Positions 35,993-58,095 of a stretch of DNA of 64,000 bases are shown here, in pieces (the first letter of the stretch is position 1; each line of letters begins with the position of its first letter). A model generated the notes under the pieces. The model worked only from the letters and a program-made list of their open reading frames with translations. It ran no database searches and had not been told where the DNA came from. Position numbers and translations under genes: made by a program. Source of the stretch: a virus (lineage: Duplodnaviria; Caudoviricetes); IMG/VR virus record IMGVR_UViG_3300029288_005750, positions 10,813 to 74,812 of that record. One strand, 5' to 3'.

Positions 35993-36412
35993 ATGACAGC
36001 AAGAAAATTTGCTATAAATGACATCAGAAATGTTGTCAAATCTGTGATAAATGAAGGATTTTATGATAGTAATTGGATTTCTGCTTTGCAAAAAGAATTT
36101 AATGCAAATGTAAAAGTTGATTTAGAAAAAAGTATTAAGCCTCTATATGGGGGTGGTTCATATACTATGATTGGGTATGAAGTGATTTTAAAAAATCCAT
36201 CAACAAGCATTACGGGTTTTATTTTAGAAGGACTTCAAATAAATGGAATATTTGTAAATCCAGCTATTATTGTTTTAAAAAACAACATTGCTGAACTGCA
36301 TGGGTCACTTAAAAATGATATTATTTATGGTGAAACACAAGAGACTAATATTAAAAAAATATTAAGTTTAATAAAAAATAAATTATCTAGCATAAGTAAA
36401 TATAATACTTAA
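35993..36412 (+). CDS. Hypothetical protein (possible head-internal protein)
   Basis: N-terminal IRNVVKSVINE; upstream TATTTATA at 35964-35971. Confidence 0.5.
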   Translation: MTARKFAINDIRNVVKSVINEGFYDSNWISALQKEFNANVKVDLEKSIKPLYGGGSYTMIGYEVILKNPSTSITGFILEGLQINGIFVNPAIIVLKNNIAELHGSLKNDIIYGETQETNIKKILSLIKNKLSSISKYNT

Positions 36413-37212
36413 ATTTTATTAAATAAAATTTCTTGTAATATTTTTTCAACATTTTCTACTAAATTAATATATTTTTTTGATAAAACAGAATTATTTTCTA
36501 TTCCCAATAACATAGTATTATAACTTTCTAAAGATAAGTTGTTACAAACATTTATAATATCCTTTAAATCATCAACTATAATTATTGAACTTATGTCAAA
36601 AAAATCTTTTATATTTGGGCATCCCCAATATATAGGTATAGTTTTTGTAACAAAACAATCAATTAATTTTTCAGTAAAATAATTTTTTTGTCTTGAATTT
36701 TCTATACAAATATGAAATTGTGATTCAAAAAGCGGTTCTTTTAAATCTTGCAATATCTTGTTATTGTTAAAATTTTCAACTCCCAAATATTGACTAATAT
36801 AAAAATCTATTGGGTTTATTATCTTAGTTTGTTTATAGTGTACTTTTTTTCTTAATATATGGCCATCTGTTATTTCTTTATGCCCAGTTATGTTTGATAT
36901 TTGGAATTTTTTATTTGGGAAATTGTAGTTATGTATCCAGGTTGTACCAAATGGTAAAAAATAGGAATTATTACATCTTTTTAAAATTTCTTCATCATAA
37001 GCGATTATAGCATCAAATTTATTTTGATTCTTTATAGTTTCATTCCTTAATTTACATATTGCCTCAGCTTCTTTTATATATAAAATTTTAAAGCTATCTT
37101 CATTTGAATTATATCCTTGAAAACTGTCTATAAAAAGGCGAATTGGCTTTTTATACTCAATTTCAACATTTGGCCAATCTGGATATGTATAAGAATTAAC
37201 AATTTGCTTCAT
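36409..37212 (-). CDS. Glycosyltransferase family 10 (alpha-1,3-fucosyltransferase-like)
   Basis: FHICIENSRQKNYFTEKLIDCFVTKTIPIYWG alpha-3-FucT motif. Confidence 0.8.
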   Translation of the reverse strand: MKQIVNSYTYPDWPNVEIEYKKPIRLFIDSFQGYNSNEDSFKILYIKEAEAICKLRNETIKNQNKFDAIIAYDEEILKRCNNSYFLPFGTTWIHNYNFPNKKFQISNITGHKEITDGHILRKKVHYKQTKIINPIDFYISQYLGVENFNNNKILQDLKEPLFESQFHICIENSRQKNYFTEKLIDCFVTKTIPIYWGCPNIKDFFDISSIIIVDDLKDIINVCNNLSLESYNTMLLGIENNSVLSKKYINLVENVEKILQEILFNKI

Positions 37213-37215
37213 ATG

Positions 37216-37869
37216 TTATTTTTTAGGAATAAAAATCATATCTGTTTCCCACCAATCTTCCGAATTTGGAAGATGCCATTTTTTTTCATATCTACCATCA
37301 AAAAACTTTTCAAAATCTAAATACTTATTGGTGGGCAAATCTATATATATTGGGGGAGTTTTATCCCACTCTACTTCACTTTTAATAATATCTATATTTT
37401 TATTATCAACAAAATCTTTTAAAGTTTTTAAAACAGTTAAGTCATATCCTTGTAAATCAGTGACCAATTTATCTATTCTCTGTATTTTTAGTTCTTTTAA
37501 AAAATTTCCTAAGTTTATTGTTTTTGCCTCAATTATTTTAATTGGAGAATTATGTAAAACTCCACCTTCATTTTTTAAATGGTCAAATTCTGGATTAATT
37601 GTACCCAATGTTGCTGATGGGTCCCAATTTTCAAATATATTAAATTTAACAATTTCTCCATCTTTATCTGTTAATGCATAATTAAAAAAACGGAAGCTTT
37701 TTCTCAGTGTAGACTTAAATCTTTCTTGACAAATTTTTATTTTATCAGGATTAGCGTCAAATCCATATATAATGTCATAATCATCGCATTCTTCATATAC
37801 TCCATCGCCATTATTAACTCCACAATAAACTAACAATCTTTCCCTTTGACCATAATAAGTACTTATCAT
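37216..37869 (-). CDS. FkbM-family methyltransferase
   Basis: YCGVNNG; IYGFDANP; IDKLVTDLQGYDLTVL; start placed at MISTYY. Confidence 0.75.
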   Translation of the reverse strand: MISTYYGQRERLLVYCGVNNGDGVYEECDDYDIIYGFDANPDKIKICQERFKSTLRKSFRFFNYALTDKDGEIVKFNIFENWDPSATLGTINPEFDHLKNEGGVLHNSPIKIIEAKTINLGNFLKELKIQRIDKLVTDLQGYDLTVLKTLKDFVDNKNIDIIKSEVEWDKTPPIYIDLPTNKYLDFEKFFDGRYEKKWHLPNSEDWWETDMIFIPKK

Positions 37870-37885
37870 AATATTTATTTTTAAA

Positions 37886-38506
37886 TTATTCTTTAACATA
37901 TATGTCGTCACAATCCATAACTTCTACTAGTTTATATCCCTTAGACTTCATAAACTTTTTAAATTTTAATTCATGATAATTATTTTCTACACTAAACGCA
38001 TATATATTAAATTTTTCAAAATCTATTGTTTGTAAAACATTAAATTCTCCACCTTCTATATCTAAACTGCAATAATCAATATTAAATATATTGTAAGATA
38101 TAAGTACCTCATTTAAGTTATAGCATTGGACTTCTATTTCTTTTTTTGTTCCTCCAAAAGCTTTTAACTCATATTCTATTCTTTGTAAGTGTTTTTCATT
38201 ATATTCAGATTTCAATCCACTTAGCATTTCAGAATATCCTTTAATTTCAACAAAAACATCTTTTTTCGTTTCTTTTGATATACATCCATTTAAACAAATG
38301 CATTTTCTGTTGTTTTTTAATTTTTCAAATAACGCAGGATATGGTTCTACGCATATTCCTGTCCATCCCAATTCTCTTTCAAAAAAAAGAGTGTTATTAA
38401 TTGCCAACCCGTCATTGGCGCCTATATCTAAAAAAATACCATTTTTTTTATTCTTAAAAATATTTTCATTGAGAAATTTATCTTGTAAATGTTGTCCATT
38501 ATACAT
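37886..38506 (-). CDS. FkbM-family methyltransferase
   Basis: FLDIGANDG...NTLFFE...WTGICVEP...SLDIEGGE. Confidence 0.88.
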   Translation of the reverse strand: MYNGQHLQDKFLNENIFKNKKNGIFLDIGANDGLAINNTLFFERELGWTGICVEPYPALFEKLKNNRKCICLNGCISKETKKDVFVEIKGYSEMLSGLKSEYNEKHLQRIEYELKAFGGTKKEIEVQCYNLNEVLISYNIFNIDYCSLDIEGGEFNVLQTIDFEKFNIYAFSVENNYHELKFKKFMKSKGYKLVEVMDCDDIYVKE

Positions 38507-38514
38507 AATTTGTT

Positions 38515-39207
38515 CTATTTTAAAAAGTTTTTTAATTTATTAATATTCATAGAAACATTTGTTGGCATTGTAGAATTAAACAAATAAGTCCCAGGTTTAA
38601 CATCGCTTTTTGTCTCTTTCGCTAAATCATACATTGTTTTAATATCAGTTCCTACATTAAAAATTCCAATTGCGTTTTTATTAATAAGTTGTATTATAAT
38701 TGGCACTATTTTATCAACATAATCAAAGTTCCCAATTTGATTAATATATGCATATTCATAAGTAAAAGGAGATTTTTTTTGTGTAGTTCTTATTAGTAAA
38801 TAGTCATTTGCTTTTAATTGAACATATGCATCTCCTAAAAGTTTTGTATACCCATACCAATTGGCACAATGCACTGGAACATCTTCTTCTGAGGCATTAT
38901 CAATTGAATTTGAGTATATATAATCTGTAGAAATATGAATAATTTTCTTTTTATTTTCACTACAATAATCAACTAAATTAGATAAAGCTCTATAATTAGT
39001 ATTCCAATGAGATTGTTTGTCTAAAGAATATGTATTTGTATTAGCAATGCAATTGATTATTTCATCATATTTTTCTAAAAAAATAGAATAACTTTTAAAA
39101 TCACAAAAATCCATTCCATCTTTTTTTCTGCTAATATAATCCCATTTTGTTGTTTCTTGGATAAATTTTCCAAGCAATCCGTCTCCTAAAATAAGCCTAT
39201 TTTTCAT
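38515..39207 (-). CDS. RmlD-like NDP-4-keto-sugar reductase (SDR)
   Basis: LGDGLLG; HISTDYIY; YGYTK catalytic YxxxK. Confidence 0.8.
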   Translation of the reverse strand: MKNRLILGDGLLGKFIQETTKWDYISRKKDGMDFCDFKSYSIFLEKYDEIINCIANTNTYSLDKQSHWNTNYRALSNLVDYCSENKKKIIHISTDYIYSNSIDNASEEDVPVHCANWYGYTKLLGDAYVQLKANDYLLIRTTQKKSPFTYEYAYINQIGNFDYVDKIVPIIIQLINKNAIGIFNVGTDIKTMYDLAKETKSDVKPGTYLFNSTMPTNVSMNINKLKNFLK

Positions 39208-40513
39208 TTTTAAAATTTTTTAAAATGGTTTCGAAATAATCAAAAACATCACTGTTGTAATGTGGAGATGCTCCCAAAAAGAAAACTTGGTCTAAAACTT
39301 TATTTGCTATAGGATAATTTCTAAAATTACCAAATTCTTTATATGCTGGATGTAATAATATATTTCCTGCAAAATAATTTCTCGTTTGAATTTTGTTCTT
39401 TTCGAGATATGTGACAAGTTTGTGTTTAAATTCATAATTATCACAAACTATTGGAGTGCCAAACCATGATGTTGATGCTTTTGATAATTCATTTATAACT
39501 GTAACTTCTGGAATATATTTTTCAAAAATGCTCTGTATCGTATTTTTACTTATAATACGTTTTTTGTGAATTTCTTCAAATTTTTCTAATTGGACTTTCC
39601 CAATTGCACCTTGTAAATCTAGTGGTTTTAAATTATATCCTAAATTTACAAAAAAATATTTATGGTCTATTATTTTGTCTGAATCTGGCAACCATTTACT
39701 AAATCTTTTTTTACATATTCCATTGGGAATTATATTTTGAGACCCTACACAAGAGCAGTCCCTTCCCCACCAAGCCATACTTCTAGCAGTTTTAATTATA
39801 TCATAATTGTCGGATGTTATCATTCCCCCTTCTCCAGTTGTAATATGATGTGCAGGATAAAATGAATAAGAAGACGCAGTAGCATATTCATTTAAATATT
39901 TTCCATTCCACTTACTTCCCAAACTATCGCAATTATCTAAAACAAGCATGATACTATGTTTGTTACATATATCTAAAAGAATATCAATATTACATGGATT
40001 TCCTAACACTGGGGATAAAAATATTGCTTTTGTTTTTGAATTTATATTTTTTTCAATTAAAGATAAATCAAAATTAAGAGAATCAAACTCAATATCTATA
40101 AATTTAGGTTTAAGTTTATTAATTATTATCGAAGATAATGTAGTTGGGAACCCTACAACAGAAAGTATTATTTCATCATTATCTTTCCAGTCAAATGTTT
40201 TTTTTAAAGCGGCAATAAGCATCAAATTTGCAGAGCTTCCAGAATTGACCATAACAGAGTGTCTTTGGCTAAATTTTATAGAAAAAAGCTTTTCAAATAA
40301 ATCAACATTTTCTCCCGCAGATAACCAAGACCCTAATATAAGAGATTTAATAGCTTCTGTAATTTCTCTTGAATCCCAATAGGGACCAGAATAATAAACT
40401 GGAGTAACTCCAGGAATAAACTTAGTATCATTATAAACATATTTTAATGTGTTAAAATTTTTTCCGAGACTATTAATTAAATCTTCAATTTGAATATTTA
40501 CACTTTCATTCAT
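39197..40513 (-). CDS. rfbH: CDP-4-keto-6-deoxyglucose 3-dehydrase (RfbH/DdhC-like)
   Basis: VNSGSSANL; DNCDSLGS; SFYPAHHITTGEGG (His in place of the PLP Lys); WGRDCSC...C Fe-S cysteines; DHKY; GYNLK. Confidence 0.85.
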   Translation of the reverse strand: MNESVNIQIEDLINSLGKNFNTLKYVYNDTKFIPGVTPVYYSGPYWDSREITEAIKSLILGSWLSAGENVDLFEKLFSIKFSQRHSVMVNSGSSANLMLIAALKKTFDWKDNDEIILSVVGFPTTLSSIIINKLKPKFIDIEFDSLNFDLSLIEKNINSKTKAIFLSPVLGNPCNIDILLDICNKHSIMLVLDNCDSLGSKWNGKYLNEYATASSYSFYPAHHITTGEGGMITSDNYDIIKTARSMAWWGRDCSCVGSQNIIPNGICKKRFSKWLPDSDKIIDHKYFFVNLGYNLKPLDLQGAIGKVQLEKFEEIHKKRIISKNTIQSIFEKYIPEVTVINELSKASTSWFGTPIVCDNYEFKHKLVTYLEKNKIQTRNYFAGNILLHPAYKEFGNFRNYPIANKVLDQVFFLGASPHYNSDVFDYFETILKNFKNEK

Positions 40514-40577
40514 AAATTTTTTATATTTATGATAATAATAAGAAAATTTTATTAAAATTTCAAATTTAATATAATAT

Positions 40578-41300
40578 TTATAATTTTGTTTTAAATTTTG
40601 GATTAAAAAAATAACATTCTAATCGTTCTATATTCCAAGGATTGATAGTGTCTTCTATTAATAATTCCACTACTTTTTTATAAAACTCTTTACTTCTAAT
40701 ATGAGCATGTTCTTTTAAAATCCCGAAATGTCCTCCAGGAATAAATTCATATAGATTAGGTTTTTCATAATCAAATAGTAAATTCCATATTTTATCTACA
40801 TTTATTCTAGGATTATAATCATGTGGATGTCCATTACTTTCACATACCAAAACTTTCCCAGAATCAAATTGTCGTGATGTAGACAATTCCCACATAGTTC
40901 CAACACTTAAAGCTTGAATGTTATCGCTAATATCTTTGACTTCAATTTTTTTGGGAGCTTGAAGACTATTAAAATGAAATCCCCAATATCCTCCTATTTT
41001 TAAAGCTGCACACTCATTGCATTTATCAACTCCGTCATTTATCACCTCAACTATATTTTCCCAATGGTCAAAGGGATAATCTTGAGCAAAAAAGGTTAAA
41101 TCAGATAAGTTATCATAATTTATATATATATGATTAAAAAAAGAATGAACACACCTTCCCAGGTTTTGTTCGACAAATATTTCATTTGGATTATTTGTAT
41201 TAATTCCTTTTCTATATATAGTTTTTTTGATATCTGTATTCAATTTATCCATCCAAGATAAATTTTTATCATATGCAGCAATCACAATCTCTTTAGTCAT
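40578..41300 (-). CDS. DUF3431-like (GT-A-related) protein
   Basis: IVIAAYDKNLSW...NLGR...HIYINYDNL...FFAQDYPFDH...IERL. Confidence 0.7.
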   Translation of the reverse strand: MTKEIVIAAYDKNLSWMDKLNTDIKKTIYRKGINTNNPNEIFVEQNLGRCVHSFFNHIYINYDNLSDLTFFAQDYPFDHWENIVEVINDGVDKCNECAALKIGGYWGFHFNSLQAPKKIEVKDISDNIQALSVGTMWELSTSRQFDSGKVLVCESNGHPHDYNPRINVDKIWNLLFDYEKPNLYEFIPGGHFGILKEHAHIRSKEFYKKVVELLIEDTINPWNIERLECYFFNPKFKTKL

Positions 41301-41309
41301 TTTATATGA

Positions 41310-41669
41310 TTATAGTTTAACATCTTTAATTCCTACGTTTCTTTTAGTTGTTATAGCAAATGCAGTTTTAACATTATTTGGCTTATCATCATTAATTAAT
41401 ATTCTATCACCACTACTAATTCCCATAATTAATTGGTCATAAAATATTCCAGCATCTATCAATTGTTTTTCAGTAATAATACGCATACATTCTTTTCTTC
41501 CAGTTACTAAGATGATAGTATAACCATTTCTTTCCCACTCATTAATTGCATCAAGTGTTCCTGGCAGTAATTCCAACGGATGCGTTAATTGTGCTGATAA
41601 ATTTCCATGATGTTTAATTAAAGTTCCATCTATATCGCAGAATATTGTTTTTGGTCTTTCTTTTGTCAT
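41310..41669 (-). CDS. Minimal HAD phosphatase
   Basis: FCDIDGTL motif I; LVTGR motif II; RILINDDK. Confidence 0.8.
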   Translation of the reverse strand: MTKERPKTIFCDIDGTLIKHHGNLSAQLTHPLELLPGTLDAINEWERNGYTIILVTGRKECMRIITEKQLIDAGIFYDQLIMGISSGDRILINDDKPNNVKTAFAITTKRNVGIKDVKL

Positions 41670-41680
41670 GTGTTTTAATT

Positions 41681-42322
41681 TTATATATTATTTGGAAAAT
41701 CTAAACCAGTATATAACTTATATTGGTATTTGGCTTGTATTAGTGCCAACCTTTTTCCCATTTTTGTTGAAACTATTGAATCAATATAAAAGTTACTATC
41801 ATCAACAACAATATCTGATACAGGAGTGCAATTATATACAATTGAATTCTTTATATTTTTTATATCAGCCCACTTTTCTCTGCATATTGTTCCATAATGA
41901 AGCTTTAATTTCTTTGCTGCGTACCTTATTGACGCAGCATACCCACCATTTCCTAAAATAACTAAATTATTATATTTTAAATTTTCTGATAATACTTCTT
42001 TTGCTGATATAAAATCAGTATTATATGCTTTTAAAATACCATTATCATTTATCACAGTGTTTGCTGCACCAATTGCTATAGCATCATCACTAATTACATC
42101 AACATATTTTAAAATTTCTTTTTTATATGGCATTGTTATGGCAAATCCCTTAAAATTTAAAGTTCTTGCTGCATTTACTGCTTCTTTTATGTTATTGACA
42201 GAAAAAGACTTATATAAAGCATTTATTTTATCTAATTCAAAAGCTTTATTAAATATCATACAACCTGTATTACCCGCTTCTTTAGCGAACGAGCAAAATA
42301 TTAATGTGTCTTTATTTATCAT
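41681..42322 (-). CDS. Shikimate dehydrogenase-like protein (SdhL-type)
   Basis: MINKDT start; GFAITMPYK; AANTVINDNGILKAYNTD; LGNGGYA. Confidence 0.78.
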   Translation of the reverse strand: MINKDTLIFCSFAKEAGNTGCMIFNKAFELDKINALYKSFSVNNIKEAVNAARTLNFKGFAITMPYKKEILKYVDVISDDAIAIGAANTVINDNGILKAYNTDFISAKEVLSENLKYNNLVILGNGGYAASIRYAAKKLKLHYGTICREKWADIKNIKNSIVYNCTPVSDIVVDDSNFYIDSIVSTKMGKRLALIQAKYQYKLYTGLDFPNNI

Positions 42323-43232: not shown

Positions 43233-44004
43233 AATTATTTAATTCTTTTTTTGCTAAAAAATACTCTTCCTTTGTTGGTACCTTTGCATGCCACTCAGCA
43301 CCTTCCATAAAAGAAACCCCTTTCCCTTTTATAGTATTCATTATTATACATATTGGTATATCAGTTTTTGTATTTATAGAAGATTTGATTTGGGAAATAT
43401 CATGGCCATCAATTTCTATTACATTCCATCCAAAACCTTCCATTTTTATTTTAAGATTACCAAGGTCAAGTATATCTTTAACATATCCATCATTTTGTGC
43501 TTTATTATAGTCAATTAAACAAATTAAATTATTTAATTTATATTTTGGAGCCAACATAAATCCTTCCCATATTTGACCTTCTTGAATTTCTCCGTCACCA
43601 AGAATACAAAATATTTTATTATCTATTTTTTTTAATTTGCTAGCTAAAGCATGACCAATTGCAATGCTTAAACCTTGTCCTAATGACCCTGTTGTGGCAT
43701 GTATGTATTTTAATTTATTCTTATCTGGATGTCCTTGCAATGCAGAGTTTATTTCTCTAAATGTATTTAAATCATCATTGTTTAATAGCCCTATTTCATA
43801 TAATGCAGCATATATAACTGGAACAGCGTGTCCTTTAGATAATATTAATTTATCTTTGTTTATCATATCGTGTTCTGAATATAAATAAGCTATTAATTCA
43901 GCCAAAGAAAAACTCCCGCCAATGTGACCTGAGCCTTTTTTATAAACCATATCTAATATATGGTGTCTTAATTTATTAGGTTTAATTTTCATTTTCTTGA
44001 ACAT
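43225..44004 (-). CDS. Transketolase, N-terminal (ThDP-binding) subunit
   Basis: SGHIGGS; LSKGHA; LQGHP; TGSLGQG; GDGEIQEG...N ThDP motif. Confidence 0.9.
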   Translation of the reverse strand: MFKKMKIKPNKLRHHILDMVYKKGSGHIGGSFSLAELIAYLYSEHDMINKDKLILSKGHAVPVIYAALYEIGLLNNDDLNTFREINSALQGHPDKNKLKYIHATTGSLGQGLSIAIGHALASKLKKIDNKIFCILGDGEIQEGQIWEGFMLAPKYKLNNLICLIDYNKAQNDGYVKDILDLGNLKIKMEGFGWNVIEIDGHDISQIKSSINTKTDIPICIIMNTIKGKGVSFMEGAEWHAKVPTKEEYFLAKKELNNYE

Positions 44005-44611
44005 ATTTTTTTAATAATCCTACTATAATATGACTAATCTTTGATATTACATCTTCATAATGAAAATTGTTGTTATTTCCCCCTGTGTTACCAGGAAATT
44101 TTGATATACCTTTAACTCTTAAGATTAAATCAGCATATTCGTCAGATTTAGTATTTTCGTTTCTTGTTATTAAAACAGTTTTCATGTTCATAGTCTTTGC
44201 AATTTTTAAAGCCTCAACTATGTTTTTGGAATTACCAGAACCAGACATGGCAAATAATATATCATTTGCTTCGGCTTGATATTTTAATTGCTCTGAAAAT
44301 ATTTTTTCAAAACCTATATCATTAACCATACCCGTAATGGCTGCTGGTGAGTCACATAGACTAATTGCATGAAATTTATTTCTTTTCCCCTTTCTTTCTG
44401 TTTTGTCTTCAGATACAAATGGATGCATGTTTAAATCTAAAACCAAGTTACAAACAGATGCGACATTACCTCCATTACCACAAGAAAATATCTTATTTTC
44501 GTTTTTATATGCAACTAAAATCATATTATAAAATCTTATAATATCTTCAGTTGATATAGATAAAAAAGCATTGTTTGATTCTTCTTTATATAAATCTATT
44601 AACTCTTTCAT
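43982..44611 (-). CDS. SIS-domain sugar-phosphate isomerase (GmhA-like)
   Basis: CGNGGN; NDIGFEKIFSEQL; MSGSGNSKNIVEA. Confidence 0.82.
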   Translation of the reverse strand: MKELIDLYKEESNNAFLSISTEDIIRFYNMILVAYKNENKIFSCGNGGNVASVCNLVLDLNMHPFVSEDKTERKGKRNKFHAISLCDSPAAITGMVNDIGFEKIFSEQLKYQAEANDILFAMSGSGNSKNIVEALKIAKTMNMKTVLITRNENTKSDEYADLILRVKGISKFPGNTGGNNNNFHYEDVISKISHIIVGLLKKYVQENEN

Positions 44612-44719
44612 ATTTTATCATTTATGTGAATTATAATTTAAGTATAATTAAAAATTTAATAAATTTCAAGAATTTTTTTAAAAATATAATTTATTAGAAA
44701 AAATTTTATTTTGAGTGTA

Positions 44720-46252
44720 TCATTTGTGCTTAGATAAAAGATATTTGCCATATAAAAATAAAAACTTCCCATATTCTCCATTATGAAAATTTTTATATAA
44801 ACTACAAATATTCAAATATTGTAAAATTCCTAATAATTTTACATTTTCCCAAGAGTAATTGTTATTGCTACAAAATTTTTCTAATTCATTTAATAAAAAT
44901 AATAAATTTTGTCTTATATAATGAAATATATATGCTCTATTGTCTTCTATACTTATTTTGTAAAGTTTATTATTAACATCTGTACCATTAATTAATAATG
45001 AATGATACATTTTTCCTAAATCATAATAAAAATCGCCAATTTGTAAACTATTTCCGAAAGCTTCTCTCCAATCAATTAATACAAAACTATTGTCATAATA
45101 TATAATGTTTTCTGGTTGAAAATCTCCATGAAACAGACTTGGAATAGAATTTTTATAAATATCATCCCAATTTATGCTTTTTAGCATATTTTCAATTGAA
45201 TCTACTCTAATTCCATTAACATATTCTATTTTATCTATATCAGTTTTCGAAAAATATTCACACCTACTGATGGTTTTTTCATAATACATTTTTTTGCAAT
45301 TATTTATAAATTGCTCATTTTTTTCAAAATTTCTATTTCCTAAATTGTCAAACCAAAAGGGTATAATTTTTTTTAATATATTATCGTCATTAATAGTTGA
45401 CAACAGTTTTCCATTAATAAACTTATAATAATACATATTATCATGTATTCTTTCAACAATTGGGCAGGTTTTGTTTAAATATTTTACCCTTTCTATTCTG
45501 TTTTCAACGGTTTTATTATTTGAAAAATATTTTATAACTGATGTATCTTCAATAAAAATTACTTCATTATCTTTTTCTGCAACAATATTATTACTAAAAA
45601 CTTTTTTTGTAAAACAATAAGAATCATTATTACCTATATCATACCATTTAAAAAATTTAAGTTCTATTCTTTCTAAATTATTAAATCCATTCAAAACTTG
45701 ATGTTCGTTTTTTATAATTTTCTTATCATTTAAACTATTCCAAAAGACTTCATAATCGTAAATTCCGGCTATACCTATAAAACATTTATCTCCTAAACCA
45801 TAATAAAATTTATTTAAATATATATCCCCGTCTACCAGACAATACTGCTCAGATTTATCTTTATCTATTTTAGATATACCAATCCAGTTATTTTTTAAAT
45901 TAAAAAAATAGTCTTCTTCGGTAATGGTATCAACTGATGTGAATATAAATGGTGATTGTAAATGTTCTTTGCAGGATAACAAACTTAATCCAGGACCAGA
46001 GCCAATGCCATCATAATTTTCTATATCAACATATGTTATTTTTCTGTCACTATGAGTTTTATTTAAATATGACTTTATTTGGTCTGATTTAAATCCTACA
46101 GCAATTATAATCTCTACATCTTTTGGAGTTTTTTCTATAATCCTTGAGATGGCCGCTTTATTTTCTAGTGGCAATAATGCTTTATGTAAACCTTCTACTG
46201 CTTTGTTTCTAGTTCCTTTTCCTGCAGCTAAAATACAAAATTTATAATTCAT
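44720..46252 (-). CDS. Nucleotidyltransferase / APH-choline-kinase-like phosphotransferase fusion
   Basis: N-terminal ILAAGKGTR...HKALLP; WYDIGN; C-terminal FHGDFQPENI...LIDW. Confidence 0.8.
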   Translation of the reverse strand: MNYKFCILAAGKGTRNKAVEGLHKALLPLENKAAISRIIEKTPKDVEIIIAVGFKSDQIKSYLNKTHSDRKITYVDIENYDGIGSGPGLSLLSCKEHLQSPFIFTSVDTITEEDYFFNLKNNWIGISKIDKDKSEQYCLVDGDIYLNKFYYGLGDKCFIGIAGIYDYEVFWNSLNDKKIIKNEHQVLNGFNNLERIELKFFKWYDIGNNDSYCFTKKVFSNNIVAEKDNEVIFIEDTSVIKYFSNNKTVENRIERVKYLNKTCPIVERIHDNMYYYKFINGKLLSTINDDNILKKIIPFWFDNLGNRNFEKNEQFINNCKKMYYEKTISRCEYFSKTDIDKIEYVNGIRVDSIENMLKSINWDDIYKNSIPSLFHGDFQPENIIYYDNSFVLIDWREAFGNSLQIGDFYYDLGKMYHSLLINGTDVNNKLYKISIEDNRAYIFHYIRQNLLFLLNELEKFCSNNNYSWENVKLLGILQYLNICSLYKNFHNGEYGKFLFLYGKYLLSKHK

Positions 46253-48243: not shown

Positions 48244-48256
48244 TTTACTGTTATTT

Positions 48257-48931: not shown

Positions 48932-48941
48932 ATTTTATATT

Positions 48942-50456: not shown

Positions 50457-50490
50457 GTTTTATTATTTGATTTTATACAAATATAATAAA

Positions 50491-51360: not shown

Positions 51361-51361
51361 C

Positions 51362-52273: not shown

Positions 52274-52281
52274 ATTTTTAT

Positions 52282-53049
52282 TTAATAATAATAATTTCCA
52301 TCATGAATATAATAATCATTTTTTTTATAGACACAATTATATAATCCGTTTTTTACATGGTGTGCCACCATTCGTTTTTCAAAAGAATTTCCTCCATAAA
52401 TAGGACCATGATAAATTATTTCTGAAAAATTTTCGCCTAAATTATAATCAATTTTTTTTAAATTATCAACATTACCAAAAAAAAGCTGGTCAGTAAAATT
52501 TTCTCTATAGTTGAATAATTCAGTTTCAAATTCTTGTCTTTTAAGTATCCTCGCCCCTTCTATTTGCTCGTGTTTGGCAACTTTTAATCCATTAAATTTC
52601 ATTAGACAATTATTTTTAGTCCAAGCAACCATCGTAGTACTACATTTTGGATTTTTTTCAATTTCATTTATAGAATCACTTATAAATTCATCTCCTATAT
52701 TGATATCCTGCATGCAATCTGCTGCTATATTTAAAACATATGGAGTTTTAACATTTAATAAAGCAACAAAGTATGGCATTGTATAATTGTATCCAAGAGT
52801 GGAAGTATTTATATTTAATTTGAAATATTCTTTTGCCAATTCTTCATAATCTTCAACAAATACAAAGTCAAAGTCAAAATGTTTTTTTAATTCATAAACT
52901 AAATTAAGTATATCTTCCCTGGAAGAAACATTATTTATCGTAATTAATTTATTCTTTAAAAGTGCATTTTTAAAATTAAGAAACCAACTATTTTTATCTA
53001 AAATAACTTTATAATTTCCTTCATATACAATTGTGTGCAGTGTAAACAT
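52282..53049 (-). CDS. Hypothetical, probable GT-A-fold protein
   Basis: Within the glycan operon; YVLNIAAD, FTDQLFFG, SFEKR. Confidence 0.45.
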   Translation of the reverse strand: MFTLHTIVYEGNYKVILDKNSWFLNFKNALLKNKLITINNVSSREDILNLVYELKKHFDFDFVFVEDYEELAKEYFKLNINTSTLGYNYTMPYFVALLNVKTPYVLNIAADCMQDINIGDEFISDSINEIEKNPKCSTTMVAWTKNNCLMKFNGLKVAKHEQIEGARILKRQEFETELFNYRENFTDQLFFGNVDNLKKIDYNLGENFSEIIYHGPIYGGNSFEKRMVAHHVKNGLYNCVYKKNDYYIHDGNYYY

Positions 53050-53054
53050 ATCTA

Positions 53055-54419: not shown

Positions 54420-54520
54420 TTAAACAATTTTTCTTTTAATTCAATTAATTTTATTTTTTCTTTATTTTTCATGTTTTTAAGCTCTAACCAGTCTTTTCTC
54501 ATGTCATACAATAATGGGTT
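54416..54520 (-). pseudogene. Orphan 3' remnant of a paralogous glycosyltransferase
   Basis: Alternative frame NPLLYDMRKDWLELKNMKNKEKIKLIELKEKLFK* aligns ungapped to the end of 54504..55433 (11/34 identical); its TGA overlaps the next ATG (ATGA). Confidence 0.65.
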
Positions 54521-55433
54521 TATGAGAAAAATTTTCTTTTTGAATATTTAAAAGTTTAAATCTTTCTTTCTTTGTCATTCCTCGAAACTGTATCATATAA
54601 TTTTCCATTTCATACATTAACGGATTTGTCATATTTGTTGGAGGATGCCACATATGAAATATGTCTATTGATGGGTTGTCAGAATAATTTATTTCTCCTA
54701 CAACAGTAATAATTTTATCCCAAAACATTTGGTCTTCTGCAGCATAGCCAAAAAATATTTGTGAATCAAATCCCCCAACCTCGTAATATAAATTTCTTTC
54801 AACAAATATAGAACCACCTTTTGACCCCAACGCTGGCTGTCCAGCATACATTGGCAATTTTATACCTGGAGTTTTTTCTTCCAAAGTGTTAATATTAATC
54901 TTTTTATTAATTACTTTTTTAGTCAGCTCCTCAGATAAATACAATACCCGTCTTTTCCCGTAAGGCTGTATACATTTTGAATTGTTGAGATTTTTAAAGA
55001 GCTCTTCAAAAAAATTTTCTTTAACTAAAATATCAACATCATGTAATAAATAGTATTTTGCTTTATTAGAATATTTAACTCCAAAATTATATGCAAAACT
55101 TCTATTATATTGCTCTATTATATTACCTGGAGTCCACAAATAATTAACTATACCTTCTAATTGAGACTTACATTCTGAGATTTTACTGTGTTCTACAAAA
55201 GTTAAACAAAAAGATTTTGATTCTTTGGGTATAATAAATTTATTGTTATAATATGAAAATGATTTTTTAAAAGATTCTATTATTGGTATCAAAAATTCTT
55301 TTCTGCTTCTAAATCCAATAATTACATTAACATCAAACTCTGAATTATTAATCAAAGATATGTATGATTTCTCTTTTATTTCTTCATAAGAAAAATGATT
55401 TTTTTCAATAGCTTCAAAAATATTATTTATCAT
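54504..55433 (-). CDS. GT2/GT7-like glycosyltransferase (galactosyltransferase C-terminal motif)
   Basis: YNRSFAYNFGV; LLHDVD; GGFDSQIFFGYAAEDQMF; HMWHP; start placed at MINNIF. Confidence 0.75.
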   Translation of the reverse strand: MINNIFEAIEKNHFSYEEIKEKSYISLINNSEFDVNVIIGFRSRKEFLIPIIESFKKSFSYYNNKFIIPKESKSFCLTFVEHSKISECKSQLEGIVNYLWTPGNIIEQYNRSFAYNFGVKYSNKAKYYLLHDVDILVKENFFEELFKNLNNSKCIQPYGKRRVLYLSEELTKKVINKKININTLEEKTPGIKLPMYAGQPALGSKGGSIFVERNLYYEVGGFDSQIFFGYAAEDQMFWDKIITVVGEINYSDNPSIDIFHMWHPPTNMTNPLMYEMENYMIQFRGMTKKERFKLLNIQKENFSHKPIIV

Positions 55434-56412
55434 TTTGTTTATATTTAAAATAGAACTCTCCTCTGATTTTATTTCCAAGACAACTTTTTCTAATAGTAGT
55501 TTTACTATTTTTTAAACTAATTGCGGCTAATCTTAAACTTTCCCATATTTTTACTTTTTCCCCGTTTAAGTTATATTGAATTACTTGTTTATTGCTTTTT
55601 TTAATACATGGAATTTTTATTTTTAGTGCTATTTTTTTAGATTTTTTATATATCCAATAAAATCCGCCAGACCTTTTCGACCTTCCCAAACAAACTTGTC
55701 CTATCCTATTAATATTTATCTTTAAAACAAAATTAATGACTTTGGCACTACTCCATTCTTTTAAAAAATTACCATTAGTATCATATTGCAATATGGGATT
55801 GGAACACAAACTTTTAAACTCACTATGTTTTATTTTTTTGTTTTTATTCATAATAGATGATTTAAACCTCCAAACAAATCCAGCAGATGTTTTTATTCTT
55901 CCACAGCAGCAATTGCTTATTCCAGAAATTAAAGTATTTAAAAATAATGCTGCAGCACTTATGCTTTCCCATTCTTTTATAAAATTACCATTTAAATCAT
56001 ACTGATAAATTGGTTTTAATTTAACTGTTTCGTTATAAACCTTCATTCTATCATTTTTAAAACCAAAATTATTTCTAGCTGACCTGCATAAATTATATCC
56101 TAATTTTTCAAATTTATTATTTTTTTCATTTGCAAACAAAATAGAATTTAAACAAAGTTGTTCTTCATTAATTAAGACTTTTGCAAATTTTAATTTTGAT
56201 TTTTTTTTGTCATAAGGAATATTTTTAAGTATTTCAAATATAAAATTATCTTCGCCATATTTATTCCAAGCCTTTTGAAGTTTTTGATTGTCATGATTAT
56301 TATTTCTCAACTTCTTTAAGTGATATTTAAATCTTGTTTTAAAATTACAAGTGCTCCCTATATATAATTTTGAATTAATTATGTTTTTAATTATATAAAT
56401 GCCAGATTCCAT
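55423..56412 (-). mobile_element. Free-standing GIY-YIG homing endonuclease with three NUMOD1-like repeats
   Basis: SGIYIIKN...LYIGST...R...H; FIFEIL; GYN; repeats IYQYDLNGNFIKEWES / ILQYDTNGNFLKEWSS / VIQYNLNGEKVKIWES. Confidence 0.9.
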
Positions 56413-56441
56413 TTTTGTTTTAATCTATTCATTAATAAATA

Positions 56442-56489
56442 TTATAATAAATTTTTCATCTTTTCATTAATTTCTTTTAAAGTTTTCAT
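56442..56489 (-). pseudogene. Possible 5' stub of the displaced resident gene (15 aa)
   Basis: MKTLKEINEKMKNLL*, ATG overlapping the upstream GT2 stop (TAATG); ends immediately before the TATTTATT that precedes the GIY-YIG gene. Confidence 0.4.
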
Positions 56490-57292
56490 TAATAATTTTC
56501 TATTTGTTTAAAAGCTGGTTTTTTTAAAACTTCTTGATGGATTTCCCATTGAAGTTGTTGTCTTACTTTATCATCTGAAATTGGATTATCTCTGTTATAT
56601 ATATAAAGAGATTTATCATTATATTTTGTTTTCTCATATCCAGAAATTTCCATTATAGGATACATAATAGCGACATCATAAGTACAACGATAAAATTCCT
56701 CGTTTTTATCTTTCATACAAGAAAAATTGGGGTCTTGTTTTTCAATTGCATGATAAACTCCGGCTCTAAAAGTTCTAATATGAGAAACATAAAAAGGAAG
56801 TTTTCTCATTAAAGAAAATTCTTCTTTACTTTTATATGGTTGTGCAATTCCTCTTCTACCATCCGTCCAGCTAGCTTGTCCATACATTATCCAGCAATCA
56901 TTTTTACAATAAAATTCATTGATATATTGAAGTACTTTATTGTTTGGTAGCCAATCATCCCCATCTAATAGAACAACAATATCATGTGGTTGACAATACT
57001 CCATTATAACTTTATGTATATTTGGCAAAGCAGTTACATTAACTTGATTTTTGACACAGATTGCCTTTTGGTCATTATGGGGCAATTTATCCCAAGAATC
57101 GTCTGTAGAAGCATCATCAATAAAAATTGTTTTAAAATTATCATATTTTTGTGTAATAACCGAACTTACACATCTTTCTATAAACTTAGATGCATTATAA
57201 AATGGTACTATTATTTTAATAGGCAATTTATCATATTCTATAGGAGTATATCCTGGGGGAACAAAAAAAGGAGGTAATGCTGATATTGACAT
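56489..57292 (-). CDS. Glycosyltransferase family 2
   Basis: IIVPFYNA; IFIDDASTD; LLDGDDWL. Confidence 0.88.
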   Translation of the reverse strand: MSISALPPFFVPPGYTPIEYDKLPIKIIVPFYNASKFIERCVSSVITQKYDNFKTIFIDDASTDDSWDKLPHNDQKAICVKNQVNVTALPNIHKVIMEYCQPHDIVVLLDGDDWLPNNKVLQYINEFYCKNDCWIMYGQASWTDGRRGIAQPYKSKEEFSLMRKLPFYVSHIRTFRAGVYHAIEKQDPNFSCMKDKNEEFYRCTYDVAIMYPIMEISGYEKTKYNDKSLYIYNRDNPISDDKVRQQLQWEIHQEVLKKPAFKQIENY

Positions 57293-57294
57293 AA

Positions 57295-58095
57295 TTATAT
57301 TTTTTTAAATTTAAATTCTATTTCTTGATGGCATCCAATTATATTTGAAAAATCTATAGATTCATAATTTATAATTTCATTATTTAAGTATTTATCATTT
57401 AATTCTTTTACTGATAAATTATATTTATCCCCTTTTCTATTGGGATGAGTTTCATTTACAATATTATTTGGAGAATTAACTAAACAACTGCGTTTATAAG
57501 CCACCATTATTTCTTTAGGAAAGTTATCAAAAACTTGTAAATTTCCTTCTAGTGTGTTTGGGTTATGGAAATTTATAGCTTTAACTAATTTTTTTATTTC
57601 TTTTGTTCTAAATGTGTGACCATCAACGGAAAGCGGATATCCGAAATCTGCATAGCTTTTTGACCAATTCCACCAAACAAATTTTTGGTCTTGATTATTT
57701 GGGACAAGGACATTATCACACTTCATAGTGTAACAATAAGTTACATTGAATCCAAGTCTAAAACTAAAACAAAATACATTAATATCCTTTAAACATTTAA
57801 CTATATCATCTTCTTCAACTGTATTATATATAATATCGTCATCTGTAAAAAAACAAGTATATTCTAATTCTGTTTCCATTAGTTCTAAAGTTTGTTCTTT
57901 AAAATCAATCTCCTCAATCCAATTTATTTTTTGAAATCTTTCTTTTAATAAAAAATATGATTTTTTAAATTCTTCATTAGAATATCTATATAAAATATTA
58001 ATATTAAATATATTTTGTGCATTTCTTTCGATTGATTCTAATAAAAGGTGTAATTGAGGAGCTCTATCAAAGCTAAAGATTATTGCATTTATCAT
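57295..58095 (-). CDS. Putative GT-A-fold glycosyltransferase
   Basis: IIFSFDRAPQLHLLLES; FFTDDDI DxD; start placed at MINAII. Confidence 0.6.
   Translation of the reverse strand: MINAIIFSFDRAPQLHLLLESIERNAQNIFNINILYRYSNEEFKKSYFLLKERFQKINWIEEIDFKEQTLELMETELEYTCFFTDDDIIYNTVEEDDIVKCLKDINVFCFSFRLGFNVTYCYTMKCDNVLVPNNQDQKFVWWNWSKSYADFGYPLSVDGHTFRTKEIKKLVKAINFHNPNTLEGNLQVFDNFPKEIMVAYKRSCLVNSPNNIVNETHPNRKGDKYNLSVKELNDKYLNNEIINYESIDFSNIIGCHQEIEFKFKKI

Follow-up and report, generated by a model that had tools for sequence, protein, structure and literature searches.

A phage-owned island of sugar-making, tailoring and transferase genes that lacks export machinery

A block of about 22 kb, dense in glycan genes, lies within a 64,000-nucleotide stretch (the window) of the viral record IMGVR_UViG_3300029288_005750, and it raises the question of what is built there and on which acceptor. 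In the ORF list of the window, 25 back-to-back minus-strand ORFs of 119-526 aa span positions 36409-58221; 24 of those in the island (36409-58095) are glycan-related candidates, and the remaining one encodes a GIY-YIG homing endonuclease. Gaps longer than 30 bp occur at five places only, after 40513, 44611, 50456, 54419 and 56412, the other neighbours overlapping or lying at most 11 bp apart, and every plus-strand ORF within the span overlaps a minus-strand ORF. The strand-coherent glycan block described by the original prediction, which was made from the letters alone, is thus borne out. The island is genuine and carries genes for making, tailoring and transferring sugars, without export machinery. 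Its gene content and intact motifs, its phage context and the homologous viral blocks make it very probable that a real phage glycan pathway is encoded.

Families were called by Pfam and NCBIfam profile scans, and PHROG profiles were also used. The genes of the island are as follows:

36409..37212, minus strand: GT10-like glycosyltransferase, 267 aa (PF00852, E 5.4e-9, 36.4 bits vs. a cut-off of 23.9)
37216-37911 and 37886-38506, minus strand: two FkbM-family methyltransferases (PF05050, E 2.4e-12 and 2e-18; also TIGR01444)
38515..39207, minus strand: short SDR, RmlD- or heptose-epimerase-like, 230 aa (PF04321, E 2.9e-15)
39197..40513, minus strand: RfbH/E1-like PMP-dependent NDP-4-keto-6-deoxyhexose 3-dehydrase, 438 aa (NF011936, E 1.5e-100)
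40578..41300, minus strand: DUF3431 protein, candidate transferase (PF11913, E 1.3e-10)
41310..41669, minus strand: small HAD phosphatase, 119 aa (Pfam HAD families; motif DIDGT)
41681..42322, minus strand: shikimate-dehydrogenase-like protein, shortened, 213 aa (PF08501, E 2.4e-18; NF009202, E 2.1e-33, under cut-off)
42312-43232 (C half) and 43225-44004 (N half), minus strand: split transketolase (PF02779, PF02780, PF00456)
43982..44611, minus strand: GmhA-like SIS isomerase, 209 aa (TIGR00441, E 7e-25, under cut-off)
44720..46252, minus strand: fused nucleotidyltransferase and APH/choline-kinase-type kinase, 510 aa (Pfam NTP_transf_3 and APH)
46242..46721, minus strand: cupin, possible sugar isomerase or epimerase, 159 aa (PF01050, PF07883)
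46723-48303, 48257-48931 and 48942-50456, minus strand: triad of B12-radical-SAM, GT-A-fold and B12-radical-SAM proteins (Pfam for the radical-SAM pair)
50491-51360 and 51362-52273, minus strand: GT17-like and GT11-like pair (PF04724, E 3.8e-24; PF01531, E 3.3e-11)
52282..53049, minus strand: 255-aa protein without family match (Pfam, NCBIfam and PHROG scans negative)
53055-53708, minus strand: DUF5672 protein (PF18922, E 4.2e-22)
53709-54419, minus strand: GT2 (PF00535, E 8.1e-7)
54504..55478, minus strand: possible GT7-like transferase, weakly supported, 324 aa (phrog_26327, function unknown, E 5.6e-13)
55423..56412, minus strand: GIY-YIG/NUMOD homing endonuclease (PF01541, PF07453; TIGR01453, 80.7 bits, above the cut-off of 56)
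56489..57292, minus strand: GT2, 267 aa (PF00535, E 1.4e-18)
57295..58095, minus strand: GT-like protein, 266 aa from the ATG at 58095 (Atlas look-alikes at 0.99)

The scans recovered most of the families named beforehand: GT10, two FkbM proteins, an RmlD-like SDR, an RfbH-like protein, DUF3431, HAD, split transketolase, GmhA-like SIS, nucleotidyltransferase-kinase, cupin, two B12-radical-SAM proteins, GT17, GT11, DUF5672 and GT2. The shikimate-dehydrogenase-like gene had been omitted from that list, and the 'GT7/GT2' call at 54504-55478 finds weak matches only (phrog_1721 galactosyl transferase, E 2.8e-4; Glyco_transf_7C, E 0.047). For the gene at 57295, the start at ATG 58095 is indicated by homologues of 269 and 276 aa; its Atlas look-alikes are mostly viral clusters, one auto-named glycosyltransferase. 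The homing endonuclease is a selfish insert and no glycan gene.

As proposed originally, the block is owned by a tailed phage. The contig (14% of the phage genome by CheckV estimate) carries gp6- and gp25-like baseplate wedge genes as well as genes for a primase, a RuvC-like resolvase, an A1-like protein, PhoH and a homing endonuclease, and phage genes flank the block on both sides. That assembly joined a phage to a bacterial polysaccharide locus is hardly credible in view of these flanks, the homing endonuclease within the block, the homologous block in the complete, terminally repeated phage genome G003, and a GC content (0.234-0.291 inside vs. 0.245-0.297 outside) that shows no break. Moreover, the left junction (36409) is bridged at flat depth by contigs from runs of two other studies, X4 (34532-36681) and X3 (35880-38258), which rules out a chimera there.

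Further glycan-related genes lie outside the block:

27688..32618, minus strand: satellite group of a 339-aa protein, a GT2-like protein (313 aa), a GT4 (395 aa) and proteins of 335 and 256 aa
34806..35936, plus strand: KamA-family 2,3-aminomutase, radical SAM (TIGR00238, 326.6 bits, above the cut-off of 199.2)
62519..63991, plus strand: GT4-like glycosyltransferase, 490 aa (PF00534, E 8.1e-8; phrog_7162, E 1.1e-36)

Three outlying transferases had been noted at the outset. Those at 29580-30767 (the satellite GT4; PF00534, E 6.6e-8) and 62519 match Glycos_transf_1, and the one at 28664-29605 has no HMM match and an Atlas likeness of 0.98 to viral GT2-like clusters. The 335-aa, 339-aa and 256-aa satellite proteins have no assigned function; homologues of four of the five satellite proteins (all except the 335-aa one) accompany glycan genes in loci L051 or L056. 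The KamA gene adjoins the block; G003 has a 54%-identical copy, about 6.5 kb away from its own homologous block.

At the core of the island stands a cassette of seven genes for sugar activation, overlooked in the original prediction, which comprises the small HAD, the cupin, the LicC/LicA-like nucleotidyltransferase-kinase, the GmhA-like isomerase, the split transketolase and the shikimate-dehydrogenase-like protein. The cassette recurs in viral and cellular loci alike, among the best 80 of the 363 IMG/VR loci that match as well as among the 80 best cellular ones. Among these best matches, with viral counts taken over 81 loci, cupin homologues occur in 60/81 viral and 68/80 cellular loci and shikimate-dehydrogenase-like ones in 19/81 and 25/80, while the small HAD is found in 60/81 viral vs. 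only 2/80 cellular loci. The transketolase halves match NF004559 (E 2.7e-71 and 1.3e-80), 13 of the 16 PDB matches of the GmhA-like protein are phosphoheptose isomerases (best E 2.6e-16), and the cupin finds only weak oxalate-decarboxylase cupin matches in the PDB. The nucleotidyltransferase-kinase has 581 homologues in the protein database. In its AF2 model (pLDDT 92.6), the predicted N domain resembles RmlA-type enzymes (Z 23.3), LicC (Z 23.1), MurU (Z 20.0) and HddC (Z 20.0), and the predicted C domain APH(4)-Ia (Z 14.4) and LicA (Z 14.1). It is the company of a GmhA-like protein and a LicC/MurU/HddC-like nucleotidyltransferase fused to a LicA/APH-like kinase that suggests an activation route.

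The RfbH/E1-like protein scores 337 bits against NF011936, under its cut-off of 423, and its top PDB match is 3bcx, a CDP-6-deoxy-4-hexulose 3-dehydrase (E 4e-65). Its 'YPAHHIT' aligns with identical letters in E1; the histidine presumably takes the place of the aminotransferase lysine. No E3-type reductase partner appears in Pfam scans of the 61 window ORFs. The adjacent SDR matches TIGR02197 and TIGR01214 far under their cut-offs. In the triad, both B12-binding radical-SAM proteins have CxxxCxxC; the protein between them has no Pfam match and is modelled as a GT-A fold (pLDDT 83.8), which Foldseek matches to TarP, WrtF, TarS and SpsA (E about 3e-5, TM about 0.45). Of the candidate transferases in the block, five exceed a Pfam GT cut-off, fold or language-model features speak for two more, one is weakly supported, two are DUFs and one is without assignment. 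The last of these, the 255-aa protein, has one homologue, in locus L006 (46% identity), and the DUF3431 protein has homologues in L006, L021 and L062.

In the pathway that we propose, the split transketolase would yield a ketose phosphate, most simply sedoheptulose-7-P, which the GmhA-like isomerase would turn into an aldose phosphate. The small HAD may strip one phosphate, the APH-type kinase domain would phosphorylate, and the fused nucleotidyltransferase domain would give an NDP-sugar or NDP-polyol, to be isomerised or reduced by the cupin and the shikimate-dehydrogenase-like protein. Such a route would be a non-orthologous analogue of the GmhA/HldE/GmhB heptose route. In a second branch, the E1-like 3-dehydrase and the SDR would deoxygenate; the two B12-radical-SAM and two FkbM enzymes would attach C- and O-methyl groups, and 8-11 soluble transferases would assemble the oligosaccharide. 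The whole chain, i.e. a phage-owned cytoplasmic glycan builder acting on phage proteins, is put forward tentatively.

The claim that only soluble enzymes are present agrees with all scans. A polytopic membrane protein, Wzx, PGT or WecA/MraY-type gene is found neither on the 74.8-kb contig nor in the complete 253.7-kb genome G003. Hydropathy scans give 0/61 polytopic membrane ORFs in the window and 0/264 in G003, and a Kyte-Doolittle scan, with the 57295 gene started at ATG 58095, reveals no hydrophobic segment in any block ORF; as a positive control, the Wzx-like protein of cellular locus L087 was picked out by this script. None of the five viral records, G003 included, has a match to PF02397, PF01943 or PF00953, with control matches in 10, 13 and 12 of 14 genomes, respectively. 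O-antigen assembly on a carrier lipid is likewise the work of soluble or peripheral transferases, so that block transferases without membrane segments are equally compatible with host-surface glycans. Exporter absence does not separate a virion from a host-surface acceptor, since the host could supply carrier lipid, flippase and ligase.

The likeliest single acceptor may be phage-made proteins, of the virion or its assembly, although our confidence in this falls short of even. A phage-specific acceptor is suggested by the transferases: among the best matches, homologues of block transferases occur in 3-9/81 viral loci (the GT10-like one in 8/81), and near the cassette in the 80 best cellular loci GT10 appears once and the others are absent; the Atlas look-alikes of two transferases are 78-100% viral clusters. 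It is also suggested by the transferase genes at 27688-30767, which lie downstream of baseplate genes on the same strand. Proteins at 2153-11054 contain 17-22% S+T vs. a window mean of 12.8%, which is ordinary for fibre proteins and no sign of glycosylation.

The near-absence of block transferases from the cellular loci and the mostly viral look-alikes of two of them count against the possible, if somewhat doubtful, alternative that the sugars and transferases extend or alter the host's lipid-linked O-antigen, capsule or S-layer glycan by way of the host's initiating transferase, flippase and ligase, as does the lack of a phage-encoded membrane step in the five viral records. A new long glycan would also have to suit host flippases and ligases, which would be demanding for a lytic phage. 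On the other hand, lipid-linked O-antigen enzymes are known in the GT10, GT11 and GT2 families, and cellular genomes carry the cassette too, in surface-glycan contexts: L087 has it with GT2 and B12-radical-SAM genes and a Wzx-like flippase 7.5 kb off, and L100 beside methyltransferases and HisH/HisF-like genes. Host cell-surface modification is, in the excerpts at hand, the published interpretation of the analogous cyanophage clusters, the closest known (PMC1079782, PMC9602691, PMC12801897). Remodelling of the envelope would imply a superinfection block, altered adsorption of progeny to debris, or changed grazing.

Compared with phage proteins, DNA is a very improbable acceptor. Mono- to oligosaccharides on hydroxylated or hydroxymethylated pyrimidines could serve restriction evasion, and precedents are described in extracts of two reports: hexose, HexNAc and heptose mono- to trisaccharides on 5hmC (10.1101/2023.12.21.572611) and poly-arabinosylated 5-hydroxycytosine in RB69 and DLP3 (PMC13326640). 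However, the entry enzymes, i.e. the ThyA family (PF00303) and C5-cytosine methyltransferases (PF00145), are each found in 0/5 records including G003 and are missing from the window Pfam scans, and 8-11 transferases with C- and O-methylation exceed the trisaccharides described in those extracts. In the Tet_JBP search, the control was without match.

It is also unlikely that the product is a soluble or lipid small molecule, such as an aminoglycoside-like or CDP-alcohol-derived metabolite or glycolipid, tailored by the B12-radical-SAM enzymes and the 2,3-aminomutase. B12-radical-SAM enzymes, E1-like dehydrases, FkbM proteins and KamA-family aminomutases are common in natural-product sugar pathways, NCBIfam gives weak AprD4-family and methylase-family matches, and the modelled LicC/LicA likeness of the nucleotidyltransferase-kinase would also fit a CDP-alcohol substrate. 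Nevertheless, no scaffold-forming PKS, NRPS or cyclase turns up when the window and the 10.8 kb upstream of it are scanned for families, and the number and variety of transferases suit an oligosaccharide better.

Comparable sugar-gene islands are already known from cultured cyanomyoviruses and big ocean phages. The island was originally held to be far more elaborate than is usual in tailed phages; this does not stand, as about 20 genes form a comparable block on one strand in Synechococcus phage RN05-S, and available portions of the reports list 24 'LPS genes' in P-SSM2 (PMC1079782) and 22 cell-wall genes, including 13 GTs, in S-SCSM2R (PMC12801897). Among other viral records with homologous blocks, L006 has 20 of the window's genes and L021 has 17. 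G003, a distant relative with direct terminal repeats, has 12 of them plus KamA and lacks the GmhA, transketolase and shikimate-dehydrogenase part of the window; its triad counterparts are 70/63/70% identical. Finally, the annotations of Synechococcus phages RN05-S and RB11-B likewise include an adjacent GT17/GT11 pair, at about 33% identity.

The block is real and correctly delimited at 36409-58095, between which edges lie 25 minus-strand ORFs with just five gaps of more than 30 bp. Almost every gene family named in the original prediction was confirmed by Pfam and NCBIfam searches. The gene list itself needed correction, as it had missed a shikimate-dehydrogenase-like gene, one member proved to be a GIY-YIG/NUMOD homing endonuclease, and the 'GT7' call is weakly supported.

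Features of the block and its surroundings (window coordinates)
170-1168, primase, phage hallmark
20115-22407, gp6-like and gp25-like baseplate wedge proteins, phage hallmarks
27688-32618, satellite group of the block
33095-34723, T5 A1-like protein (phrog_1745, E 4e-132)
34806-35936 (+), KamA-family 2,3-aminomutase
36409-58095 (-), the block
41310-46721 (-), cassette: small HAD (41310-41669, 119 aa), shikimate-dehydrogenase-like gene (41681-42322), cupin, GmhA-like gene, split transketolase (two genes) and NTase-kinase (44720-46252)
46723-50456 (-), triad: two B12-radical-SAM genes and, between them, a GT-A-fold gene (48257-48931)
52282-53049 (-), protein with no family match
54504-55478 (-), 'GT7' call
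55423-56412 (-), homing endonuclease
57295-58095 (-), glycosyltransferase-like protein
59706-60467, PhoH, phage hallmark
62519, further glycosyltransferase (GT)

Among the transferases within the block, five are firm (they pass Pfam GT cut-offs), two are supported by fold or other features, one is weak, two are DUF proteins and one is of unknown type. Sugar-nucleotide enzymes, tailoring enzymes, five GTs and up to six further candidates share one orientation over 25 ORFs. The triad's GT-A protein has no HMM match, and its model (pLDDT 83.8) shows a GT-A fold resembling TarP, WrtF, TarS and SpsA. In the ESM Atlas, the proteins encoded at 57295-58095 and, in the satellite group, at 28664-29605 look like glycosyltransferase clusters that are mostly viral. 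We rejected the GT4 protein at 29580-30767 as an SdgA O-glycosyltransferase (24.5 bits vs. a cut-off of 800), the likeness being that of the GT4 fold only. The homing endonuclease is free-standing, and its 3′ end overlaps a TTG-started reading of the 54504-55478 gene by 56 bp; it has no homologues in the 81 viral loci described below. Between 35500 and 55400 there are 160 sigma-70-like promoter sites (158.8 expected) and 6 terminator-like sites (4.4 expected); these counts are uninformative on timing or operon structure. The T4-type late promoter motif TATAAATA occurs 38 times against 26.2 +/- 5.0 expected, a number reached by 3 of 100 shuffles, and the placement of TATAAATA sites before block genes is likewise uninformative.

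Phage hallmark genes, a RuvC-like resolvase also among them, flank the block on both sides. The source record is linear and 74,812 bp long (CheckV completeness 14%), and the window comprises its bases 10813-74812; the 10.8 kb upstream carry helicase, exonuclease and SbcC-like genes. On the 74,812-bp contig no clear terminase or capsid gene was found, nor was PF03237, and one 999-aa protein has helicase matches as well as terminase-like ATPase matches. Among cultured phages, the nearest relatives of the gp6-like protein are found in Flavobacterium phage immuto and Microcystis phage Mel-JY01, at only about 29% identity. No tRNAs are found in the window, so they give no clue to the host. Two adjacent minus-strand ORFs of 622 and 429 aa upstream of the window (bases 7221-10774 of the record) match different parts of the SbcC-like phrog_77 about 400 bp apart, and could represent a split gene, a frameshift or an insertion. 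A 481-aa protein with no family match (25843-27288, minus strand) lies between baseplate genes and satellite transferases; strong hydrophobic segments occur twice in it (near residues 302 and 391), as in no other window gene.

That the block is a bacterial polysaccharide locus joined to phage sequence during assembly, which the original prediction had named as a refuting outcome, is hardly conceivable. The GC content of the window stays at 0.23-0.30 throughout with no break at the block, the homing endonuclease lies within it, and independent assemblies span the left junction (36409). Nine public runs from five studies, labelled as landfill or groundwater metagenomes, contain the stretch 31000-40900; two of them may be its source, and no RNA runs are listed among them. 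The junction is bridged by contigs from two other studies, namely a 2,150-bp contig covering 34532-36681 (run X4) and a 2,379-bp contig covering 35880-38258 (run X3), with flat depth. Joints listed in these contigs have AT-rich sides of 20-28 letters with 90% likeness, and were dismissed as cross-matches. Baseplate proteins, primase, resolvase, A1-like protein, PhoH, the uniform GC content and the left junction all place the block in a tailed phage. Positions 31000-40900 are near-identical in all nine runs (X1-X9) with landfill or groundwater labels. The nearest described analogues of the block are from marine cyanophages.

The core of the block is the conserved seven-gene cassette, for whose reconstitution the sequence alone suffices. 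The model of the NTase-kinase (pLDDT 92.6) has an N-terminal domain whose fold matches sugar-1-phosphate and phospho-alcohol nucleotidyltransferases (RmlA-type, Z 23.3; LicC, Z 23.1; MurU, Z 20.0; HddC, Z 20.0). Its C-terminal domain belongs to PF01636 and matches APH(4)-Ia (Z 14.4) and the choline kinase LicA (Z 14.1); the kinase domain was barely sampled in whole-model searches, where the NTase domain filled the match lists. A profile search of the PDB with the NTase-kinase alignment returned weak NTase matches (best 2xme, E 3.6e-5) and was less useful than the fold search. The nearest PDB matches of the GmhA-like SIS protein are phosphoheptose isomerases (E 2.6e-16), and it scores 87.9 bits with TIGR00441 (cut-off 209). 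The cupin has weak PDB matches to oxalate-decarboxylase cupins, so no function can be assigned to it.

From these folds and alignments we infer that the cassette may follow the GmhA / kinase-NTase / phosphatase route to an NDP-heptose with non-orthologous enzymes, in which the transketolase would feed sedoheptulose-7-phosphate. The bacterial NDP-heptose pathway (GmhA, HldE or HddA/HddC, GmhB) likewise combines a GmhA-like isomerase, a bifunctional kinase and nucleotidyltransferase, and a HAD phosphatase; in addition, the best NCBIfam match of the window's SDR is a heptose 6-epimerase. The window differs in that its kinase has the APH/choline-kinase fold and not that of a ribokinase-type (HldE) or GHMP-type (HddA) heptose kinase, its NTase is of the RmlA/LicC type, all equivalog scores are far below cut-offs, and transketolase, cupin and shikimate-dehydrogenase-like genes are added. 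The product of the NTase-kinase could alternatively be a CDP-alcohol. Heptose biosynthetic enzymes have been reported in viruses (PMC11461863, a commentary on Tang et al.).

The tailoring enzymes point to further chemistry. Catalytic motifs are intact in both B12-radical-SAM proteins, the KamA-like protein and the HAD. The nearest PDB match of the RfbH-like enzyme is the E1 3-dehydrase 3bcx (E 4e-65), with which it shares a 'YPAHHIT' stretch; the alignment identifies it as a PMP-dependent dehydrase of the E1 (RfbH/DdhC) type, in which a histidine of this stretch presumably replaces the aminotransferase lysine. Neither an E3-type/ferredoxin-reductase partner nor a full-length 4,6-dehydratase was found in Pfam scans of the 61 window ORFs, and a related viral locus, L006, has two full-length SDR/dehydratase-like genes. 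Together, the two B12-radical-SAM and two FkbM enzymes suggest C- and O-methylation, a reading taken from family membership, with all specific models scoring below cut-offs. The KamA-family gene (TIGR00238, 326.6 bits) adjoins the block on the opposite strand, and its counterpart in G003, a complete terminally repeated phage genome, is 54% identical, with about 6.5 kb between it and the homologous block. Decoration of the glycan with a beta-amino acid is one conceivable role, but such a product might have a different use.

We searched for relatives of the block's NTase-kinase. A protein database holds 581 homologues (E <= 1e-5), of which the 120 matches listed show 52-65% identity once the protein itself is set aside, some of them carrying Tara labels. 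A scan of IMG/VR with the single protein gave no match, whereas the alignment-based profile scan found relatives on 363 stretches. The best 80 of these 363 and one GenBank marine virus record form a set of 81 viral loci, to which the following counts refer.

Viral loci, of 81, with a homologue of each block gene (blastp, E <= 1e-6)
Small HAD: 60
Cupin: 60
GmhA-like: 26
Transketolase halves: 24 and 22
Shikimate-dehydrogenase-like: 19
RfbH-like: 14
B12-radical-SAM, two genes: 12 and 13
GT2 (56489): 9
GT10: 8
GT-A protein (48257): 8
GT11: 7
GT17, DUF3431, DUF5672 and GT2 (53709): 3 each

Window genes between 170 and 27653, including the baseplate genes, have homologues in none of the 81. One relative, L006, shares 20 window genes (30-72% identity) adjoining PhoH; another, L021, shares 17 on a contig that also encodes a gp6-like protein (30% identity). 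G003 (253,664 bp, direct terminal repeats) shares 12 together with the KamA-like gene. Its triad is by far the best conserved part, at 70, 63 and 70% identity, and it lacks the GmhA-like, transketolase and shikimate-dehydrogenase-like genes. The cassette also occurs in a 494,120-bp IMG/VR record labelled a provirus with 98% completeness, which may be largely cellular sequence.

The cassette is widespread not only in viruses, with hundreds of contigs, but also in cells. In a scan of one genome per prokaryotic species, at least 286 stretches encode NTase-kinase relatives, and the best 80 of these show a recurring order of cupin, NTase-kinase, GmhA-like, split transketolase and shikimate-dehydrogenase-like genes, with homologues of the cupin in 68, the shikimate-dehydrogenase-like gene in 25, the GmhA-like gene in 24 and the transketolase halves in 21 and 20. 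Loci with a fuller cassette are titled as DPANN archaea, Pelagibacteraceae and other Alphaproteobacteria, Nitrosopelagicus, Omnitrophica and Sedimenticola; the NTase-kinase without the fuller set occurs, among the matches listed, in Patescibacteria, Prochlorococcus and Synechococcus. The small HAD is nearly virus-specific (60 of 81 viral vs. 2 of the best 80 cellular loci) and is replaced by longer HADs in the two cellular loci scanned; it may be a marker separating viral from cellular copies. In a record titled 'bacterium TMED198', the cassette and a small HAD of the viral type are 52-68% identical to those of the window; this contig may be phage sequence that was binned as bacterial. Of the two scanned loci, that of a Nanoarchaeota has the cassette together with a GT2, a B12-radical-SAM protein and, 7.5 kb away, a Wzx-like flippase; that of a Pelagibacteraceae has it with methyltransferases and HisH/HisF-like genes. 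These contexts indicate that in cells the product feeds exported surface glycans. In the phages, the cassette comes with no export step.

Sugar-nucleotide genes and several transferases are also co-oriented in the Wzx/Wzy- or ABC-dependent O-antigen and capsule loci of bacteria, and it is in settings of this sort that the cellular cassettes are found. Unlike these, the window, its contig and G003 are devoid of an initiating transferase, flippase, polymerase, chain-length regulator and transporter. The absence of such genes and, in the block, of membrane proteins, as originally predicted, held up in both kinds of search. First, Kyte-Doolittle scans found no hydrophobic segment in any block ORF once the 57295 gene is started at ATG 58095, a start suggested by its 269-aa and 276-aa homologues. 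An N-terminal hydrophobic segment of this gene was rejected as a membrane anchor, since it arises from the AT-rich upstream spacer when the gene is read from a TTG. No polytopic membrane ORF was found, the maximum being two hydrophobic segments among the 61 window ORFs and three, weak, among the 264 ORFs of G003; a Wzx-like protein from a cellular locus, taken as a positive control, is picked up by this script. Second, Bac_transf (PF02397, initiating transferase), Polysacc_synt (PF01943, flippase) and Glycos_transf_4 (PF00953) each occur in none of the five viral records, compared to 10, 13 and 12 of 14 control genomes, respectively. These records cover about 14% of the window's own genome and the whole of G003, which permits the statement that one block-bearing phage has no exporter anywhere in its genome.

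The block was initially thought to be far more elaborate than those described in tailed phages. This is not borne out, since the blocks of RN05-S, P-SSM2 and S-SCSM2R are comparable. P-SSM2 has 24 'LPS genes', for which Sullivan et al. proposed host-surface alteration (PMC1079782), S-SCSM1 has 13 (PMC9602691), and S-SCSM2R has 22, including 13 transferases with GT10 and GT11 among them (PMC12801897); four core transferase groups are described for one lineage of large aquatic phages (PMC12619734). Like the block, the cyanomyovirus clusters (P-SSM2, S-SCSM1, S-SCSM2R, RN05-S, S-B05, S-B43) are strand-coherent, with about 13-24 nucleotide-sugar, methyltransferase and GT genes. Homologues of the GT17 protein occur in RN05-S and four other cultured Synechococcus phages (33% identity, with 99% of its length aligned) as well as in an uncultured phage of 642 kb; in two annotated Synechococcus phage records a GT11-type gene is its neighbour. 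In RN05-S it lies within an 18-kb co-oriented block of about 20 genes, as annotated also without an exporter, which encodes a cupin, cytidylyltransferase, GDP-mannose dehydratase, RmlC, five SDRs, a DegT-family and a transaldolase-like protein, as well as two methyltransferases (one FkbM-type), GT17, a fucosyltransferase and seven more transferases. The cyanophage blocks have in common with the window an adjacent pair of GT17 and alpha-1,2-fucosyltransferase-like genes (about 33%), FkbM, DegT-family, cupin and GT2.

The sugar module is where they differ: GDP-mannose dehydratase, RmlC, cytidylyltransferase and several SDRs in the cyanophages; split transketolase, GmhA-like, NTase-kinase fusion, shikimate-dehydrogenase-like, E1-like 3-dehydrase and two B12-radical-SAM genes in the window, whose backbone is non-cyanophage. 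The described cyanophage clusters share neither the core cassette nor the radical-SAM enzymes with the window; a single GenBank phage record matches the NTase-kinase (31.6% identity), and the radical-SAM protein matches only one phage, under two accessions (20.7%). Islands of this kind have been known since 2005; the core of this one is a sugar-activation cassette that is widespread but uncharacterised. New here are the sugar module, the radical-SAM triad and the non-cyanophage backbone, and the window provides an example from a low-GC phage in runs labelled landfill or groundwater.

Phage proteins are a quite possible acceptor of the glycan, which we prefer tentatively, and virion glycosylation is plausible. 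The parts are soluble and form a self-contained system, which holds for a complete genome too; two transferase-like proteins of no assigned family are similar to clusters that are largely virus-specific; homologues of the block transferases are absent from the best 80 cellular loci, except for GT10 in one; and the transferase genes at 27688-30767 follow the baseplate genes downstream on one strand. Virion glycosylation in mycobacteriophages, chloroviruses and mimiviruses also employs virus-encoded soluble transferases and no usual host export route, a feature that the block shares but that fits other acceptors too. Mycobacteriophage Maravista has two putative glycosyltransferases (PMC11256854), and mycobacteriophage glycans are on capsid and tail tube (Freeman 2023, as cited in PMC12619734). 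Giant viruses, reviewed for self-encoded glycosylation in PMC9614988 and PMC10117803, also have sugar-nucleotide pathways and methylated rare sugars. Should the virion be the acceptor, elaborate self-glycosylation as in giant viruses and actinophages would reach large phages of aquatic and subsurface habitats as well, with a bearing on adsorption, particle stability and particle recognition.

A glycan of the host envelope is a possible acceptor as well, albeit a doubtful one. The transferases of lipid-linked glycans are also soluble, the cassette has a cellular context, 86% of the phage genome lies outside the contig, and alteration of the host surface is the published reading of the cyanophage clusters. 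In that case, a lytic phage would rewrite host surface chemistry with its own rare sugars. We regard a small molecule or a glycolipid as an unlikely product. Attachment to phage DNA is more improbable still: published phage clusters place mono- to trisaccharides, including heptose, on 5hmC (10.1101/2023.12.21.572611) and arabinose chains on 5-hydroxycytosine (PMC13326640), but a ThyA homologue (PF00303) and a C5-methyltransferase (PF00145) each occur in none of the five viral records, complete G003 included. A search for the Tet_JBP family had no match even in control genomes and is hence uninformative. In the cluster papers cited here, from 2005 (P-SSM2) on, no acceptor-identifying experiment was found for large-phage glycan blocks.

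Returning to phage proteins as the acceptor, a fuller model, speculative and rather unlikely to be right as a whole, would be as follows. The cassette core would be an undescribed sugar- or polyol-activation pathway that viruses have in common with small-celled prokaryotes, often accompanied by B12-radical-SAM C-methylases, to which large phages would add a virus-specific small phosphatase and about ten soluble, largely virus-specific transferases of their own, and so coat their virions in a 'glycan shield' of methylated heptose-type glycan with neither lipid carrier nor exporter.

Serine and threonine make up 17-22% of the proteins encoded at 2153-11054, a composition that is not diagnostic of glycosylation. 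The 570-aa protein at 9342-11054 (plus strand) has an S/T run (18 of 40 residues from residue 139), the only one of its kind among the 61 window proteins, and a C-terminal CarboxypepD_reg-like domain.
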